Both the position numbers and the translations under genes were made by a program. Source: an uncultured Sphingobacteriaceae bacterium (GTDB taxonomy: Bacteria > Bacteroidota > Bacteroidia > Sphingobacteriales > Sphingobacteriaceae). Taken from it: a stretch of DNA of 37,901 nucleotides. The notes under the pieces were generated by a model. It made no database searches and was not told the origin of the DNA. It saw only the letters and a list, made by a program, of their open reading frames with translations. Positions within the stretch are counted from its first letter, which is position 1. Each line of letters starts with the position of its first letter. Where the stretch lies: assembly GCA_937875035.1 (NCBI GenBank), contig CALNCF010000328.1, positions 1 through 37,901 of the forward strand. The letters are read 5' to 3'. Positions 5,056 to 17,542 of this stretch are shown piece by piece.

Positions 5056-5400
5056 ATGGATGTATACGGAATACCTAACTGCGACACGGTAAAGAAAGCG
5101 CTGAATTTCCTGAAAGCGAATAACGCGGCCTATACCTTTCACGATTTTAAAAAAGAAGGGGTGAGCAGGGAACAACTGGAAAAATGGGCGAAGCAGCTGG
5201 GCTGGGAAACACTATTGAATAAGCGGGGCACCACCTGGCGCAAGCTGAGCCCGGAAGTGCAGGCCAGCGTACATACACAAGCCGATGCCATCCGCCTGAT
5301 GCAGGAACACAGCAGCCTGATCAAACGACCTGTAGTGGAAAAGGGGAATACCCTGAGCGCAGGCTTCGACGAAGCCCTGTTCCGGGAGAAATACCTGTAA
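5056..5400 (+). CDS. ArsC/Spx-family protein (YffB-like reductase)
   Basis: 114 aa. The N-terminal YGIPNCDTVKKA motif and LLNKRGTTWRKL are hallmarks of the ArsC/Spx/YffB thioredoxin-fold family. Confidence 0.85.
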   Translation: MDVYGIPNCDTVKKALNFLKANNAAYTFHDFKKEGVSREQLEKWAKQLGWETLLNKRGTTWRKLSPEVQASVHTQADAIRLMQEHSSLIKRPVVEKGNTLSAGFDEALFREKYL

Positions 5401-5452
5401 GCGTTTCTTGACCGGCCTGAGCCCCGCCGGGGCCACTAACATTGAATTCGAA

Positions 5453-5490
5453 ATGCCCTTCCTCATATCAGGAAGGGCATTTTTGTTTTT
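5453..5490 (+). terminator. Rho-independent terminator
   Basis: A 10-bp perfect stem, atgcccttcc (5453-5462) / ggaagggcat (5471-5480), is followed by tttttgttttt. Confidence 0.8.
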
Positions 5491-5811
5491 AAGGAAGTCG
5501 ATTTAGTAAAAAGGGCGGTAAAAGAAACACCCTTCTCACAGAATTTTGAAATATCGAAAGAGGTTTCTACCTTGTATTCATTCGGCGATACCCTGCGCCT
5601 TACCCAACAGTATTAAATTTAATAGTTCGATATAGCTTCCGAGTTCTGGGGGTGAATAAATTCATGAGTGAGATTTCGTGAGATGGATTGGATATGGTTC
5701 GAGCCCGAGTAGGGCTACGACTATATGGACAAGGAAGTATCGGGAAGGTAGAAAAAAAGGGCTGAGAAGGGTGGGTTGGTAAAGAGTTATAAAATCTACA
5801 ATAGGAAAACG

Positions 5812-6813
5812 ATGTTAGTATTATCTGAAAATTTACTGCAATCTGACCCGAATACCATCGAGTTACATTATTGGTTTCATGACGAAACACATTTGATGGA
5901 CGCTTTAATTCAGAACAGATGTGAATACGAATTTTTAGGCATCCTAAAAGAAATAGCTTCAACCTTTAAGGTTGAAATAACAATTGAAACGGAACCTCTT
6001 GCAAACGGGGGATTGAAAAGACTTTTTAAAATTGCGAGTAAAGATGTAAACAAGAATACAATCATAGTCACACTAATAACATCACTTTTAGCCGCAATAA
6101 TCGTAACACCGATAGCAACCTCAATTAGTAAAACAACCGAAATTCTTATTCAAAAACTTTTTGAAGATTCAGAATTAAAGGAGTTAGAAAAAGAAAAATT
6201 AAAGCTTGAAATTGAAAAATTGAAGCAGGAAACGCGGAGCAATATTTTAAAATTGGATAGTAGTAATGTAGTCAAAAAGAAGAGGTCAAATTTCTATGAA
6301 TCACTCGACAATTATCCAAAAATTGAAAAAGTAACTTTTATTGCTTCCGGTGAGAATCAAGCTTCATTGCTGGAAGAACAAACTGTTTTCAGGGCTGAAT
6401 TTAAGCAATTTATTCTTGTTACTGATGACCTAGAACCAAGTGAGGAGGATAATGCGATTATTGAGATAATTTCACCAGTACTGAAGAAAGGAGCGTATAA
6501 ATGGATGGGGATATATAATGGTGAAAATGTTTCTTTTAGTATGAAATCGAAGGAGTTTAAGAACTTAATTCAGACCGGCCAAGTACAATTCAAAAATGGA
6601 ACTTCAATTAACTGCCTGTTAACAATCAAGAAAAAAATTGACAATGAAGGCATTGAAAAAATAATCTCAATCGAAGTACCTAGAGTAAATCACTATTTTG
6701 AAAATGACAAACCAGTAGAAACATCGGAAGGGAAGAAGCATCGGCGTAAGAAAGAATACGAAAGATCACAAACAGAACTCTTTAGTAGTAATCAAGATAG
6801 TACAGAACTTTAA
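5812..6813 (+). CDS. Hypothetical membrane-anchored protein (N-domain, one TM helix, K/E coiled coil, beta-rich C-domain)
   Basis: The ORF track starts at TTG 5776 and the first ATG is at 5812 (MLVLSENLL). The hydrophobic segment TIIVTLITSLLAAIIVTPIATSI maps to about 6058-6126. The heptad-like EDSELKELEKEKLKLEIEKLKQE maps to about 6157-6243. I recognise no catalytic motif. Confidence 0.7.
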   Translation: MLVLSENLLQSDPNTIELHYWFHDETHLMDALIQNRCEYEFLGILKEIASTFKVEITIETEPLANGGLKRLFKIASKDVNKNTIIVTLITSLLAAIIVTPIATSISKTTEILIQKLFEDSELKELEKEKLKLEIEKLKQETRSNILKLDSSNVVKKKRSNFYESLDNYPKIEKVTFIASGENQASLLEEQTVFRAEFKQFILVTDDLEPSEEDNAIIEIISPVLKKGAYKWMGIYNGENVSFSMKSKEFKNLIQTGQVQFKNGTSINCLLTIKKKIDNEGIEKIISIEVPRVNHYFENDKPVETSEGKKHRRKKEYERSQTELFSSNQDSTEL

Positions 6814-6834
6814 AATAATTTTAAAAAAATAATT

Positions 6835-7413
6835 ATGGGATTAATGGTTCATAGCCTGGACGGTATACCGGAAGAACACCACAGGGATTATTTCATCTAT
6901 TTGCTTGATTACGGTTGGAGTGAACCATTAAGTGATGCCCTAAGAAACAATTTCGGGAAAATGGCAACTCTTGCTTCGGAAAGGAAAAACGCAGTTGTTA
7001 TAATGCGAACAGATGCTGGTGTACATTTTAGCGATGAAGTATTATCGTGGCACAATTTCAATGGGGAGGAAGTAGAAAAAGAACAACTATTACCCGCAAT
7101 TCTAGTGACTAATAGGCATCCTGCCGAATTTCGTAAGCGAGCGTTAAGAGAAGAGTGCGAGGCTGAGATTAATTTAAAAATGATTCTTTTTCCTCTTAAG
7201 AAATATTGTCAAAGCACAACTGATGTTGTAGCTCTTATACAAAAGATATTTACCAGTATTAAACTTGAGAGGGATTTGGATGATTTTGGAATTGTCAGAG
7301 AAAGGAAGAAAGGAATAAAAGGTGCAATAGCCAGTTCGATTTTATTAGAACCTAATTTTGGTGGATTAGGTTTTAGCTTTAATAAGTTAATTGAATATTT
7401 CAAAGAAGAATAA
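6835..7413 (+). CDS. Hypothetical protein (192 aa), second gene of the island operon
   Basis: The ATG lies 22 nt after the upstream stop. There is no TM segment, P-loop or nuclease motif that I recognise. Codon usage matches the neighbouring AT-rich genes. Confidence 0.7.
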   Translation: MGLMVHSLDGIPEEHHRDYFIYLLDYGWSEPLSDALRNNFGKMATLASERKNAVVIMRTDAGVHFSDEVLSWHNFNGEEVEKEQLLPAILVTNRHPAEFRKRALREECEAEINLKMILFPLKKYCQSTTDVVALIQKIFTSIKLERDLDDFGIVRERKKGIKGAIASSILLEPNFGGLGFSFNKLIEYFKEE

Positions 7414-8196
7414 ATGGAACAAAATGCTATAAATAATGAATTGAATTCTGAAGAATATAAACGCGAATGGCGAAGACTTATAGAAATGCGAAAATCTATT
7501 ATAGCATGTCTGGCATTTTGCTATATGAATTCAGCTAGGGATGGAAGCAGTGGTGGTCGAAATTTTTTCCTGCGTATGATCGATGATATCATTCAATCAA
7601 TCATATCAATAGAAATAAATGCTAATAACGGAATAGTAAATACTTGTAGAAGGGAGGCTCGTTATTTAGTAGAGTTGTCAATTAAGAGTTATTTTATTGT
7701 AACAAATAATACTAAAATAACATTTGAACAGCAAATAGATGAATATGAAAAACTATTAGATTCATCAAATATAAATCCTATTAACACTTTAAGTTTTCAT
7801 TATTTAACCGGTCATGAAGAAGAATTTAAAATGTATGTTAAGAGGTTATATGGTTACTTATGTATGTATTCTCACTCTAGCTCCTATCAAATTCGTGAAC
7901 GTTTGACCAGAGCCGAAGCGGGTAGAACTATCGGCTTTGAAGGAGTGCAAGAACTTCACAAATTGAATAATGATATTGAGAAAGTATTTTCTACTGTTAT
8001 TGTAATGATCTTTCATTCTGTTGCGCCTTATGTCACTGCTGATTTTTTGGTTGAACCTAACGGAGAAACGATAGATTGGTACTTCAATAAGTCAAAGTTT
8101 ATATGTTTGATAGATCAACAATTTGATTATAAATCAGAGCGACAATCAATATTGGCTGATTTGAATATCAGGAGAACAAATCGCGTAACATTTTAA
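7414..8196 (+). CDS. Hypothetical, apparently all-alpha protein (260 aa), third gene of the island operon
   Basis: The ATG directly abuts the upstream TAA (7411-7413), which suggests translational coupling. The segments CRREARYLVELSIKSYF and LYGYLCMYSHSSS loosely recall the AbiV/DUF5677-type helical families, but this is unverified. Confidence 0.7.
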   Translation: MEQNAINNELNSEEYKREWRRLIEMRKSIIACLAFCYMNSARDGSSGGRNFFLRMIDDIIQSIISIEINANNGIVNTCRREARYLVELSIKSYFIVTNNTKITFEQQIDEYEKLLDSSNINPINTLSFHYLTGHEEEFKMYVKRLYGYLCMYSHSSSYQIRERLTRAEAGRTIGFEGVQELHKLNNDIEKVFSTVIVMIFHSVAPYVTADFLVEPNGETIDWYFNKSKFICLIDQQFDYKSERQSILADLNIRRTNRVTF

Positions 8197-8213
8197 TGTT
8201 TCGTAGATATTCT

Positions 8214-8474
8214 TTATACTTTCGTATTACCAGAGTAATTCCATACCCCACTCTGCCCAATAATAATATGATCCAAAACTTTTACACCTATAAACTCTCC
8301 GAGTAATTCTAATCGCTTTGCAAGTATAATATCATTTGCACTTGGCAGAAGATTGCCGGAAGGGTGATTGTGAGCCATGATAACACTTGATGCGTTTACT
8401 TTCAATGCAACCTGGAAGATCAATAAAGGATCAACTGAGGTAGAGCTGAGACCACCGGAACTAAAACTTGACCG
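8214..8474 (-). pseudogene. 5'-truncated RadC-like JAB/MPN domain gene fragment
   Basis: It translates to SSGGLSSTSVDPLLIFQVALKVNASSVIMAHNHPSGNLLPSANDIILAKRLELLGEF...SGVWNYSG. This is paralogous to residues about 73-151 of the intact copy at 9107..9562. An in-frame stop lies at 8475-8477 and no ATG precedes the domain. Confidence 0.7.
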
Positions 8475-8795
8475 TTATGTCATGTAAACAATTAGCAGTA
8501 ATAGTAGTTCAATGGGAACTTGAATTCCATGTAAGAAGATTCAATTGCTTATATCTATAAAATAGATTTACCTTTTAAAGGGTCAATTTATAATTGAACG
8601 GAAAACAAAATGTGCCAAATTGACAATTACAGCCAAATGGCACATAAGTTGATGTTGCCATATACCAAATAATTAATGGATTAAAACTGTTTGGGAATGG
8701 GTTGTCACTGTTGACGCTACGAATATATAAAGATAACTCTACTATTAAAGAATCTGTGGGTTCGTACAATACGAATAAAACAAAACCAAATTGAT

Positions 8796-9077
8796 ATGGC
8801 AGAGAACATACAAATTTCCTGTATCAACAAAGATGATCGTTACAGTGCTTATGAGCGAATAAAATATGTAGGAGGAGTTCATAATGGTTTAAGATGGAAG
8901 CTTCCATTAAATGACGCAATACGCGGAATTGAAAATGGAACTTATACATTTTATACTAATGTAAATGGTCATGTAAGGCGGGTTGTTATAGCAACGAGAA
9001 GTGGTGTTAAATACCTAAAAACCGAAGCTGATAATGACACGCCTGACAATTTGCTTAGCTTGGCTGAGTGTCCTTAA
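8796..9077 (+). CDS. DUF3892 domain protein
   Basis: 93 aa. ...ERIKYVGG...WKLPLNDAIRGIENGTYTFYT...GVKYLKTEADNDTPDNLLSLAEC matches my recollection of the DUF3892 pattern. Confidence 0.75.
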   Translation: MAENIQISCINKDDRYSAYERIKYVGGVHNGLRWKLPLNDAIRGIENGTYTFYTNVNGHVRRVVIATRSGVKYLKTEADNDTPDNLLSLAECP

Positions 9078-9106
9078 AATAAGTGCCCATTTTGGGCACT
9101 TATTTT
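9076..9106. terminator. Bidirectional stem-loop between convergent genes
   Basis: A 14-bp stem, aaaataagtgccca (9076-9089) / tgggcacttatttt (9093-9106), has A/T runs on both sides. It sits between the DUF3892 gene (+) and radC-like gene (-). Confidence 0.8.
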
Positions 9107-9365
9107 TTATTTTCCTGAATAGTTCCATATTCCACTTTGCCCAATTATAATATGATCCAGTACCTTCACATATAAAAACTCTCCCAATAGTTCTAATCTT
9201 TTTGCAAGCACCATATCATTCGCACTTGGAAGTAGATTGCCGGATGGATGATTGTGAGCCATAATAATGCTTGAAGCATTGACCTTCAAAGCTACCTGAA
9301 ATATGAGCAAAGGGTCTACTGCAGTGGAACTGATGCCGCCGGAACTGACTCCATAATATCCTAAT
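9107..9365 (-). repeat. Diverged direct repeat with 8214..8474 (the two radC-like copies)
   Basis: By-eye nucleotide alignment of the two segments shows extended colinear similarity with many substitutions. The encoded peptides differ at only a handful of positions. Confidence 0.7.
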
Positions 9366-9562
9366 ACTCTTCCTGCCCTATTCATATAAATTGCGATCAT
9401 TTCTTCGCGGTGATTTAAGCTACCAGGTTTCCAAATAGCTTTCAGGAGTTCGTGGACTTGATCCGGATTTGTAATTACCGGATGATCCTCAATCGGATCT
9501 TTGTAAATGTATGACAACTCAATTTCCGGAGGGCGAGAAAGTCTGAACTTCTTCTTTGGCAT
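9107..9562 (-). CDS. RadC-like JAB/MPN domain protein (DUF2466 family)
   Basis: 151 aa with the JAMM-type motif HNHPSGNLLPSANDMVLAKRL preceded by SSGGISSTAVDPLLIF. Confidence 0.85.
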   Translation of the reverse strand: MPKKKFRLSRPPEIELSYIYKDPIEDHPVITNPDQVHELLKAIWKPGSLNHREEMIAIYMNRAGRVLGYYGVSSGGISSTAVDPLLIFQVALKVNASSIIMAHNHPSGNLLPSANDMVLAKRLELLGEFLYVKVLDHIIIGQSGIWNYSGK

Positions 9563-9694
9563 CAGCGATAAGTCTTATGGCCGTCGAAAGTTACCCAGAG
9601 TTATACAGTATTGATAACGCCCCCGCAGGAACAACATCTTGACACTTTCATATAATTACCTGATATTGTATTGATTAACCAATAGAAGGCCTGT

Positions 9695-14896: not shown

Positions 14897-15244
14897 TTAA
14901 ACCTTCTTTACAAATTCAGATTTCAGGGCCATGGAACCGAAGCCATCGATCTTACAGGAGATATTATGATCCCCATCGACCAGGCGGATGTTCTTTACTT
15001 TGGTTCCCGACTTTAATGGCTTGGGAGCACCCTTCACCGAGAGGTCCTTGATCACCATCACCGTATCACCATTCTGTAATTCATTTCCATGCGCGTCCAT
15101 CACACGTCCCTCGGCATTCCCCGCTTCCTCCGCAGACTCTGTTCCGGGTATCCACTCATGGAAACATTGGGAACATACCATCATCTCCTGGTTAGGATAA
15201 GTCAGATCGGAATGGCATAAAGGGCAGTGTACAGTAGCGCTCAT
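14897..15244 (-). CDS. yjdM: Zinc-ribbon protein YjdM/PhnA
   Basis: An N-terminal CPLC...CSQC zinc ribbon, then [15 protein letters not shown]...[39 protein letters not shown] chose the ATG at 15244 ([10 protein letters not shown]) rather than the longer ORF-track start. Confidence 0.85.
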
Positions 15245-15433
15245 TTTATTTGGGTATAAGAGATTTGAAGGTCCTGAGGACAGGGATTTGTTCCCTGACA
15301 ACCGAATAGGATACTCAGGGGTAAAGGTAGGAAATTATTGGGATAAAACTATTGAAGATGAGTTCTGTAAGATATTGAAACTATTAATAGGCTCCTTAAA
15401 TATTCACACAAAGAATAAAAAGCATTTACCAAT

Positions 15434-15811
15434 CTATTTTTCAACCCAATACGCAAATGATTGAGGTGGTGATAAATTAAAATCATCTTTTAAACATTTT
15501 GGTCTTTTGTACTTTCTCGTTTTTTTAATCTTTATTGCAAAACCTTCATTTTTGTTAGCGAAATACTCGTAGTAGAATTCTTTACTAATACCCGAATATT
15601 CTTGTGTTAAGTCCCAAAGTGTAGATAAATCATAATTTAGAACTTCATCTATTTCAAATTCTCCTATTACTTGTTGAACAGGAGATGATGCATAAACAAT
15701 TATTGATTTTATATTTTCATTCTTAAAAATTGACTTTCTAAATTCAAATTTTTTTGTACCATCAAATATCTTAAATGCGAACTCTGGTTTGATTGATAAT
15801 ATTACCTTCAT
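15434..15811 (-). CDS. Stand-alone ASCH domain protein (COG4933-like)
   Basis: MKVILSIKPEFAFKIFDGTKKFEFRKSIFK...IIVYASSPVQQVIGEFEI...GFAIKIKKTRKYKRP...PPQSFAYW matches the COG4933-type ASCH pattern as I recall it. The ATG at 15811 lies 4 nt after the upstream stop (15816-15818). Confidence 0.8.
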   Translation of the reverse strand: MKVILSIKPEFAFKIFDGTKKFEFRKSIFKNENIKSIIVYASSPVQQVIGEFEIDEVLNYDLSTLWDLTQEYSGISKEFYYEYFANKNEGFAIKIKKTRKYKRPKCLKDDFNLSPPQSFAYWVEK

Positions 15812-15815
15812 CTTG

Positions 15816-17339
15816 TTATTTCTTATTATATGCAAACTTAATTAAATCCTCGAACTGGTCGTTAGTCAATTTAGCAAAACCTTTCGGTAAGCTCATTGGA
15901 TCTGCGAATATTTTTAACTCGATCAAGTCATTAAGAGTTGGCTTAGGCGTTGGTAACGAGTGAGCATATAGAAAGTTAATTACAAAAGGTCTATATTTTG
16001 GAAACTTATCCCACCATTTTGTTTTTAAATTCTCTTTAGAGATCATCGTCCGTCTATTACAAGCATTAAAAAAATCGTCGAAATCCTTAAAGTCATTTTT
16101 AACACTCTCTACAATACAAATTGTTGTAACTGTACTGGAATACTTTTTAGGACTTGTTTCACCAATTCTATATATCAAGATAACATCCCCAGATTTTAAG
16201 TGTCGATCAGATGAATGAGAAATATAAACTTTACTAATTCTGTTTCTGTGTGGTTCATTCTCTGTATACTTGTCTTTGTCTTCTTTTGTATTTATACTAT
16301 CTGGGAACAACTCGGTGTGATATTGAGGCTCTATCTTAATCAGATATTTATTAGTTTGTCTTGAAAAGAATGGAAAGGTAAGTTTAGGGTTTTCAATATT
16401 TACAGGATTTTTTTTATTAAAATCTCTCACATAAACTAACTCATCTCCATTTTGAGTTGTTTTAATCCCATGCCTTGTAAAGCCCCACTCTTCAAGCATC
16501 TCAATTAGTTGTTCTTGTTCAGGTCTTTTGTCGAAAATTGTAACATAAATTTCTTCAACTTTAAAAAGTAAAGCATTGTCAAATATCGTTTTCAGGAATC
16601 GTTCACCGATTTTGTAACCATTACCCGTTACTTTTAATGTTCCAATCTTCAATCTTTTTTTAGGTTTGAAAACGGGGGTTATTTCAGAATAGCTCTCTTC
16701 TCCAGCCTTTTCAATTTTTATGAAGAGGAATGCGGTTAGTTGATTATCATTATAACATACATAGCATGGCTGCTCGGATTTACGATTAAACCATGTATCA
16801 AATTCCTCATAATCACTTCTAAAACTGTCAAAAAAACTATCTTTCAAATTAACTTCGGCAAAATCAACTTTTTTGACAGCCAAAACCTTATGCGTAACCA
16901 AGTCTGGATTTTGTGCTATAGCTTTTTCTAAAAAACTTTGGATACGAAATACCTTATCGCCAATTCCTAAAATATTTGCCTTTGCATGAATTTTTTTGTC
17001 CTCTGAAATTAGGATATCTACCCTATCTTCAAATACTTCATTTAATATTTGAGTATCATTAATATCATTCTGTAAGCGATCATATTGTTGACTTACTTGT
17101 TTGATTTTATCACCTAATGGGGCTTGATATTTTAATTGATTGTAACTCTCAATTTTTACATTCATTGTGCTTAAAGAATCTTGATCCTTATATCTTTTTA
17201 ACTCTTCTATTGTCAAGGGATGAATATATTTATCATATTTGAGTTTATCCAGCCAATTGAAAAGTTGTCCGATGCCAAGATTGTGGGCCTTATTGGCTTC
17301 CCGATGTATGATGATATTTGTATCAAGTAAGACTTTCAT
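15816..17339 (-). CDS. Three-domain fusion protein: N-terminal PIN nuclease, central GNAT-like acetyltransferase, C-terminal PUA-like (EVE/ASCH-type) domain
   Basis: PIN: VLLDTNIII (D6), IEELK, NDINDTQIL, ILISEDKK. GNAT-like (about aa 155-305): AFLFIKIEK...LKIGTLKVTGNGYKIGERFLKTIFDNAL...IYVTIF...LIEMLEEWGF. PUA-like (about aa 325-505): KYLIKIEPQY...LKSGDVILIYR...TTICIVESV...LPKGFAKLTNDQFEDLIK. Confidence 0.7.
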   Translation of the reverse strand: MKVLLDTNIIIHREANKAHNLGIGQLFNWLDKLKYDKYIHPLTIEELKRYKDQDSLSTMNVKIESYNQLKYQAPLGDKIKQVSQQYDRLQNDINDTQILNEVFEDRVDILISEDKKIHAKANILGIGDKVFRIQSFLEKAIAQNPDLVTHKVLAVKKVDFAEVNLKDSFFDSFRSDYEEFDTWFNRKSEQPCYVCYNDNQLTAFLFIKIEKAGEESYSEITPVFKPKKRLKIGTLKVTGNGYKIGERFLKTIFDNALLFKVEEIYVTIFDKRPEQEQLIEMLEEWGFTRHGIKTTQNGDELVYVRDFNKKNPVNIENPKLTFPFFSRQTNKYLIKIEPQYHTELFPDSINTKEDKDKYTENEPHRNRISKVYISHSSDRHLKSGDVILIYRIGETSPKKYSSTVTTICIVESVKNDFKDFDDFFNACNRRTMISKENLKTKWWDKFPKYRPFVINFLYAHSLPTPKPTLNDLIELKIFADPMSLPKGFAKLTNDQFEDLIKFAYNKK

Positions 17340-17542
17340 TGATTGTTATTCATTTAGTATAACTCATAATTAAAGCAATGGCCCATTGAATACATCCAGC
17401 CAAAAATTGGACAATACAAAACTTTAGATAACTAATAGTTACAAGCAACAGATATACTGATAAAAGACAATGAAATCAAATTTAATTTCAAAAATTGATC
17501 ACCAACCAGTTTTTCACGACTTTTTACTAAATTAACATCTGT

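Follow-up and report, generated by a model that had tools for sequence, protein, structure and literature searches.

Three tightly packed genes in an AT-rich island of an uncultured Sphingobacteriaceae bacterium: probably independent defence cargo

The contig CALNCF010000328.1 of an uncultured Sphingobacteriaceae bacterium (GenBank assembly GCA_937875035.1), analysed here over positions 1 to 37,901 (in nucleotides, nt) of the forward strand and called the window below, carries three closely packed open reading frames (ORFs), which we name genes A, B and C. A preliminary description, made from the DNA letters alone, had taken them for one compact operon and a candidate novel defence or conflict system. 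Our analysis favours another reading. With a probability of roughly 0.65, the three genes make up a small, horizontally acquired, mosaic defence islet in which independently mobile cargo genes are stacked head to tail, and not a dedicated three-gene system. Gene A would most likely act as a stand-alone, membrane-anchored abortive-infection or exclusion factor. The product of gene B would be a sensor, regulator or adaptor that is wired elsewhere to toxic effectors, either by fusion (to SEFIR/TIR, PNP or restriction endonuclease (REase)-like domains) or through a shared adaptor domain. Gene C, which would normally travel alone in defence or mobile islands, most likely encodes a self-contained effector or enzyme. 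At this locus, co-transcription and translational coupling of B and C are probable, and one may depend on the other for function. We rated this reading and three others independently, so the four ratings are not shares of one total.

The three genes are laid out as follows.

5812–6813, + strand: gene A, 333 amino acids (aa), with an N-terminal domain, one transmembrane helix, a coiled-coil-like stretch and a C-terminal domain; PDC-S42 (PADLOC, homologs)
6835–7413, + strand: gene B, 192 aa, a soluble alpha/beta protein of an unnamed family (homologs, fusions of relatives, AlphaFold2 (AF2) model)
7414–8196, + strand: gene C, 260 aa, an all-alpha protein, borderline or sister member of DUF5677 (PF18928) (Pfam, AF2 model)

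An independent gene caller run on the source record returned identical products of 333, 192 and 260 aa, in agreement with the ORF list from which the operon had first been described. An alternative TTG start for gene A lies at 5776, upstream of the ATG. The TAA stop of A (6811–6813) and the ATG of B (6835) are separated by 21 nt, not by the 22 nt first counted. The reported abutment of the second stop and the third start at 7411–7416 is exact: the junction reads TAAATG, with the B stop at 7411–7413 and the C start at 7414, a gap of 0 nt. No own-strand terminator-like site was detected between or within the three genes, and the trio's sole terminator-like site lies within A, on the minus strand. 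A scan for sigma-70 promoters gave 21 sites compared to 17.3 +/- 3.2 in shuffled sequence, which is no excess. The surrounding DNA does have a foreign composition, as had been proposed, with a GC content of 0.32–0.36 over approximately 5500–9500 against 0.50–0.58 on either side and roughly 53% for the genome. Because the gaps measure 21 and 0 nt, no terminator-like site intervenes and the genes share one composition, A, B and C very probably form one transcript.

Distribution of genes A, B and C

Searches yielded 591 homologs of A, 393 of B and 54 of C. Conserved homologs by the hundreds for A and B and by the dozens for C indicate that A, B and C are real genes. To compare gene neighbourhoods, we used 80 loci with A homologs of 38–70% identity (one genome per GTDB species, with 7-kb flanks where available), 80 metagenomic loci with B homologs of 42–82% identity, and seven places encoding six C homologs, in Spirosoma, Paenibacillus, Taibaiella, Aquirufa, Imperialibacter and other assemblies. 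Using tblastn, neither B nor C was found in any of the 80 A loci, and neither A nor C in any of the 80 B loci. A profile of the C family applied at E<=10 to the full set of 1,343 ORFs from these 160 loci gave no match. Around the C homologs, A and B were absent from all seven places. All-against-all clustering of the neighbouring genes revealed no recurrent partner family for A or for B. Even the closest relatives, at 68–70% identity for A, 82% for B and 73% for C, occur without the other two genes.

The A-B-C trio was seen solely in the source metagenome-assembled genome (MAG) and in one further sample, where the same arrangement encodes 100% identical proteins. Since these are identical proteins of the same organism, the second sample is not an independent occurrence. 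The zero co-occurrence elsewhere therefore argues that A, B and C are independent modules. The preliminary description had looked to a conserved trio, and had named homologs that never co-occur outside this genome as the outcome that would speak against it; that is what the samples returned (0/80, 0/80 and 0/7). For genome scanning, the lesson is that tight packing in foreign DNA is insufficient to call a multi-gene system: here, what looks like an operon falls apart into three separate cargo genes once co-occurrence is tested.

None of the three genes has a homolog among 50,697 GenBank phage genomes, and among IMG/VR viral contigs two match A, one matches B and none matches C. Profiles of the three families compared with PDB sequences gave nothing below E 0.07. 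Homologs of A (32% identity) and of B (44% identity) are both present on a single replicon of Vibrio aquimaris (NZ_CP045351.1, 1.3 Mb; loci L174 and L175 of our set), with about 570 kb between them. Integron-cassette mobility, a possibility raised by Vibrio chromids with homologs of both genes, was rejected on the grounds of this 570-kb distance and the lack of flanking attC-like repeats.

Gene A and its restriction-modification context

The three proteins had first been called unrecognisable, which does not hold for A or for C. Gene A matches the PADLOC model PDC-S42 (PDLC05016) end to end (E 2.4e-110, 366.9 bits, residues 12–325 on profile positions 7–318 of 320), and C is a borderline match to DUF5677. 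Gene A thus adds a member to a candidate family that is catalogued but uncharacterised, C belongs to a DUF family or is a sister of one, and the island is ordinary in kind. The statement that the operon belongs to no named system was right in that PADLOC detected no Zorya, Kiwa, Gabija, Thoeris, Septu or Lamassu match; it overlooked that A is catalogued as PDC-S42. PDC ("phage defence candidate") models derive from genes that lie inside BREX, DISARM or type I restriction-modification (RM) systems (Payne et al., bioRxiv 10.1101/2024.01.29.577857). A text search for the name PDC-S42 in the library of papers used here returned no paper, and with it no published phenotype or mechanism.

The predicted architecture of A agrees with the membrane anchor and coiled coil proposed for it. 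A hydrophobic segment at residues 84–102 (2.51 in a 19-residue Kyte-Doolittle window) is kept in 16 of 16 aligned relatives. The corresponding transmembrane helix, at approximately 83–105, follows a conserved N-terminal domain of about 75 aa, marked by D24, H27, D30, N35, C37 and an ETEP..GGL motif, and precedes a heptad-like stretch rich in E, K and L and a conserved C-terminal domain. A also scores against NCBIfam NF053583 (LAPAL_fam) with 53.6 bits and E 2.2e-14, below the curated cutoff of 60. A phage origin of A, as a LAPAL motif-containing putative phage structural protein, was rejected, given this sub-cutoff score, the zero matches in GenBank phages and the two IMG/VR contigs.

The relatives of A point to restriction systems. 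In 17 of 78 loci, an RM gene (HsdM, HsdS, HsdR or type III Mod) lies no more than three genes from the A homolog, and in four of them RM genes are present on both sides. The flanked homologs are typically arranged as hsdS-A-hsdR, with gaps of a few bases. Among the immediate neighbours, Methylase_S (9) and PLDc_2 (9) are joined by ResIII, TaqI_C, RhuM, AbiH, Fic and Eco57I/MmeI methylases; relaxase, integrase, Fic or RhuM genes are often present in A loci. Gene A therefore shares with PDC-S42 both the family match and, through its relatives, the embedding in RM systems from which the PDC models were drawn. However, the window copy lies outside any RM, BREX or DISARM system and instead heads a stack with two unrelated genes. 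This makes it a fresh PDC-S42 example outside a restriction operon, and a lead in its own right.

PrrC is an RM-embedded abortive-infection gene. It offers a parallel for the A family, in which a single gene is likewise slotted between hsdS and hsdR (loci L005, L007, L010 and L019). In contrast to PrrC, with which it has no sequence relationship, A lacks ATPase and anticodon-nuclease motifs and is a single-pass membrane protein. PrrC has been named as almost exclusively embedded in type I RM systems (bioRxiv 10.1101/2024.01.29.577857). As a working analogy, we infer that A could be a guard of a restriction system in the manner of PrrC.

Gene B, gene C and a possible link between them

Gene B gave no match in Pfam, NCBIfam or PHROG, and its sole PADLOC match, to PDC-M12B, is weak and partial (E 5e-4). 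The protein has no hydrophobic segment of the kind found in A. A HMMER search of 1.84 billion representatives collected 252 B clusters, most of them of about 190 aa; a set of longer ones has the B domain at the N-terminus followed by extra domains. Four of these (P0315, P0318, P0320 and P0326) are fused to PNP_UDP_1, with 54–62 bits against a Pfam cutoff of 25, and a fifth (P0317) is fused to TIR_2/SEFIR, with 41 and 37 bits, above the Pfam cutoffs. When the extensions were scanned with PADLOC, they matched bSEFIR (E 1.2e-38), a PN-superfamily effector model (E 5.7e-22) and PDC-M60C, and the extensions of 340–500 aa fusion forms matched the REase-like PDC-M58A (E 3e-7). The bSEFIR model is covered over its SEFIR part alone, at profile positions 27–195 of 412. 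Two further fusions (P0299 and P0305) have an extension with an RNxxLH motif, which by eye appears HEPN-like.

One locus (L160) suggests a second kind of wiring. A PNP-like gene (5150–5995) ends 2 nt before a B gene (6001–6855), and the last 75 aa or so of the two proteins form a common domain, 55% identical between them, with the motif WxRAGGDxSIL...NGGGGK. Effector-associated adaptor domains, in which homotypic domains pair effectors with their controllers, have reportedly been described by Kaur, Burroughs, Iyer and Aravind. The domain shared at this locus looks like such a homotypic adaptor, linking the effector to the B protein.

The window copy of B can be aligned over its full length with 36 diverse members, at 26–53% identity. 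It has the length of about 190 aa and the hallmarks of the domain, namely the 'MGL' start and the motifs YxYLLDYGW, (D/N)EVLSWH and LLPA(I/L)L. Conservation falls almost wholly on hydrophobic or structural positions; H73 alone among the conserved positions has catalytic-type chemistry. At the extreme N-terminus, 'MGL' (residues 1–3, window positions 6835–6843) is kept in 32–35 of the 36 members. The AF2 model of B is alpha/beta, with a mediocre mean predicted local distance difference test (pLDDT) score of 69. A thioredoxin-like fold was considered and not assigned, as Foldseek comparisons of this mediocre model with the PDB gave E >= 0.15 and template modelling (TM) scores <= 0.37.

Because of the effector fusions, the domain shared at L160 and the near-absence of conserved catalytic positions, we read B as probably a non-catalytic domain that keeps toxic effectors under control, in the role of sensor, regulator or adaptor. 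Its relatives share C-terminal SEFIR/TIR, PNP and REase-like domains with modular bSEFIR and PNP-effector proteins. In contrast to those sensor-effector proteins, the B domain falls outside Pfam and NCBIfam families, and window B has no fused effector; the adjoining gene C has no toxic domain recognised by Pfam or Foldseek. We found no name for the B domain and its effector wiring in Pfam, NCBIfam or PADLOC. As an uncharacterised domain of about 190 aa, likely an immune sensor or regulator to judge from its fusions, it is a lead that stems from the relatives.

Gene C, too, is placed through its relatives. Pfam DUF5677 matches window C over 57 residues with 19.9 bits and E 8e-4, below the gathering cutoff of 27.1; 42 of 43 C relatives match DUF5677 at E<=0.1, the best at E 1.9e-8, and one (P0293) reaches 28.8 bits, above the cutoff. 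Because the window copy is below the cutoff and the relatives match, C is a sister or borderline member of DUF5677. A PADLOC scan of C gave no match. The AF2 model is confident and all-helical (pLDDT 90.6, predicted TM score 0.90), and Foldseek matched it to nothing in the PDB or BFVD at E<=0.001. C marginally passes the hydrophobicity threshold at residues 191–213, within helices that are buried in the model. Many polar residues are invariant in the family (R42, D43, R54, D57, D58, R80, E81, R83, H154, Q159 and E162), a pattern expected of an enzyme. With its confident model and a fold without a match among solved structures, this DUF5677-like protein is the third lead from the islet.

The UniRef name of one homolog suggested that C might be a HEPN protein of the AbiU2-like type. 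C is indeed all-helical, like HEPN-type domains, and like Abi genes it stands alone in defence islands. However, C had no Pfam match to HEPN_AbiU2 at E<=10, and the C family has no Rx4-6H motif, there being no arginine 4–6 residues before the invariant H154. Faint HEPN matches were confined to 2 of 43 relatives, and no HEPN chain was among the Foldseek matches of the model (best E 0.85). The HEPN identity was thus left unconfirmed.

C homologs were found in defence and mobile settings. One lies in a Mrr_cat / HNH_5 / Mrr_cat context beside an integrase and a transposase, and another is accompanied by RES, Hypoth_Ymh, DUF3800 and Peptidase_M78 genes. Further contexts hold an integrase in one case and NERD with AAA_15/AAA_21 in another. 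A Taibaiella MAG (L168, 1932–5807) has two copies of the module SymE toxin(-) / HTH_3(+) / X(+), one with a KilA-N protein as X and one with the C homolog; a Gabija-like OLD-TOPRIM ATPase and a UvrD helicase lie just downstream.

The TAAATG junction, which suggests translational coupling, raises the question of whether B and C form a two-gene sensor-effector module, with A unrelated. B would sense infection or restrain C, C would be the toxic effector, and the pair would be an operon-linked version of the B-effector fusions seen elsewhere. The fusions to SEFIR/TIR, PNP and REase-like domains, the adaptor-like domain shared between B and an adjacent PNP gene, and the many invariant, enzyme-like polar residues of C are all consistent with this. 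So is the finding that, among 47 B loci with enough flank, 20 have a same-strand gene within 30 nt of B; five of these 20 B genes are also of the longer, fused kind. These tight partners are variable. They include a protein with a TIR_2 match (E 0.0046) and an RNAIAH-motif protein with a match to HEPN pEK499_p136 (E 0.053); because both Pfam matches are sub-threshold, the assignments of the separate partners rest on weak evidence. However, no C-family protein stands beside B in the 80 B loci, even with the profile at E<=10, and the majority of B genes with enough flank stand without a tight neighbour. Nor does B precede any C homolog in the seven places, and C therefore functions without B elsewhere. 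We consider a B-C module unlikely, while ranking it first among the alternatives to the mosaic islet.

The same caution applies to a broader proposal, which we put forward tentatively. B may represent an undescribed domain of prokaryotic immunity, a non-catalytic sensor or regulator that is plugged into many effectors (SEFIR/TIR, PNP, REase-like and HEPN-like) by fusion, homotypic adaptor or operon linkage, and that is here coupled to a DUF5677 protein. If true, DUF5677 would be a new effector class, with a fold without a match among solved structures, and should B control C, the two would amount to a new sensor together with a new effector. B neighbourhoods as a whole are mixed, with housekeeping genes next to defence and mobile genes (Abi_C, Abi_2, Fic, DpnII and methylases). 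In three loci (L143, L144 and L156), a conserved 184-aa gene (family f69) lies 3–8 nt upstream of a B-REase-like fusion of about 500 aa, and may be a further component of this variant.

The surrounding island and the remaining readings

The genes around the trio and the borders of the island are as follows.

5490–9600, no strand: AT-rich island (about 33% GC), flanked by an ArsC-family gene and an S8 peptidase gene (composition profile, Pfam of flanking genes)
5450–5483, + strand: terminator-like hairpin at the end of the upstream ArsC-family gene, left island edge (stem of 14 bp, then a T run; inverted repeat)
8214–8462, - strand: truncated RadC-like JAB gene fragment, convergent with C (Pfam RadC E 1.5e-21, profile positions 55–113 only)
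8796–9077, + strand: DUF3892 gene, 93 aa (Pfam PF13031, E 8.5e-15)
9076–9106, no strand: terminator-like site between the convergent DUF3892 and radC genes, formed by a perfect 14-bp inverted repeat with T runs (repeat and terminator scans)
9107–9562, - strand: full-length RadC-like JAB gene, 151 aa, right island edge (Pfam RadC E 7e-31)

The RadC-like and DUF3892 neighbours named in the preliminary description were thus recovered with Pfam, which placed the RadC fragment at 8214–8423 on the - strand. Positions 8227–8462 of the truncated radC form a direct repeat with 9111–9346, the 3' part of the full radC, at 78% DNA identity. The position of the truncated radC after C, on the opposite strand, suggests a join of two radC-ended cassettes or a recombination scar. 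A search for island borders found no tRNA in the window, no integrase in the island and no flanking direct repeats. Among the island ORFs, Pfam detected no integrase, relaxase or transposase, and no ORF has the size of an integrase.

These surroundings bear on the possibility that the genes are not antiviral at all. They could be addiction, toxin-antitoxin or selfish cargo of a decayed mobile element, or unrelated cellular genes travelling with RadC and DUF3892. The RadC and DUF3892 genes do flank the trio, and the truncated radC points to recombination or decay. The relaxase, integrase, Fic and RhuM genes of A loci, and the integrases, transposases, SymE or RES toxins adjoining C homologs, would fit such cargo, as would the metabolic neighbourhood of one distant A homolog (below) and the fact that antiphage activity has been shown for no family member. 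On the other hand, relatives of A are embedded inside type I RM operons, the effector domains of B fusions match PADLOC bSEFIR and PN-superfamily effector models, the defence-island neighbours of C include Gabija-like genes, and the island itself lacks the integrase, relaxase and transposase of a mobile element. Taken together, these data make a non-antiviral role improbable.

Several points nevertheless weigh against the mosaic defence islet. The defence role of the A, B and C families is without experimental support, PDCs being unvalidated candidates (PMC12988326), and in Enterococcus the ORFs that showed protection in tests with six phages did not include the DUF5677 ORF under test (PMC12632615). 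A distant A homolog (30% identity), on plasmid 3 of Parabacteroides distasonis (L176, 5974–6942), directly follows KamA-family and DUF2148 genes; given this metabolic context, the wider A superfamily is therefore not exclusively defence-linked. In 27 of the 47 B loci with enough flank, B has no same-strand neighbour within 30 nt, and B is therefore not obligatorily dependent on an adjacent partner. Finally, given the probable single transcript, a lineage-specific functional combination of A, B and C is possible.

In its strongest form, such a combination would be a novel three-component defence system of this lineage, with A as membrane effector and B and C as sensor and effector; tight packing on one strand, one composition, the lack of a terminator-like site between the genes and the identical arrangement in a second sample speak for it, but we regard it as highly improbable in view of the zero co-occurrence in 160 homolog loci and seven C places, the closest relatives that lack the other two genes, the cataloguing of the A family as a single-gene candidate and the origin of the second sample from the same organism. 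The idea of conflict or defence cargo therefore stands insofar as all three families have its hallmarks, whereas a single coupled three-gene system does not.

A second AT-rich island, with a GC content of 0.30–0.35, is present in the window at approximately 15000–17500, between a PhnA/YjdM gene and lon. It contains a 507-aa ORF without a Pfam match (15816–17339, - strand) and, overlapping it, an ORF with an ASCH domain (15434–15835, - strand).

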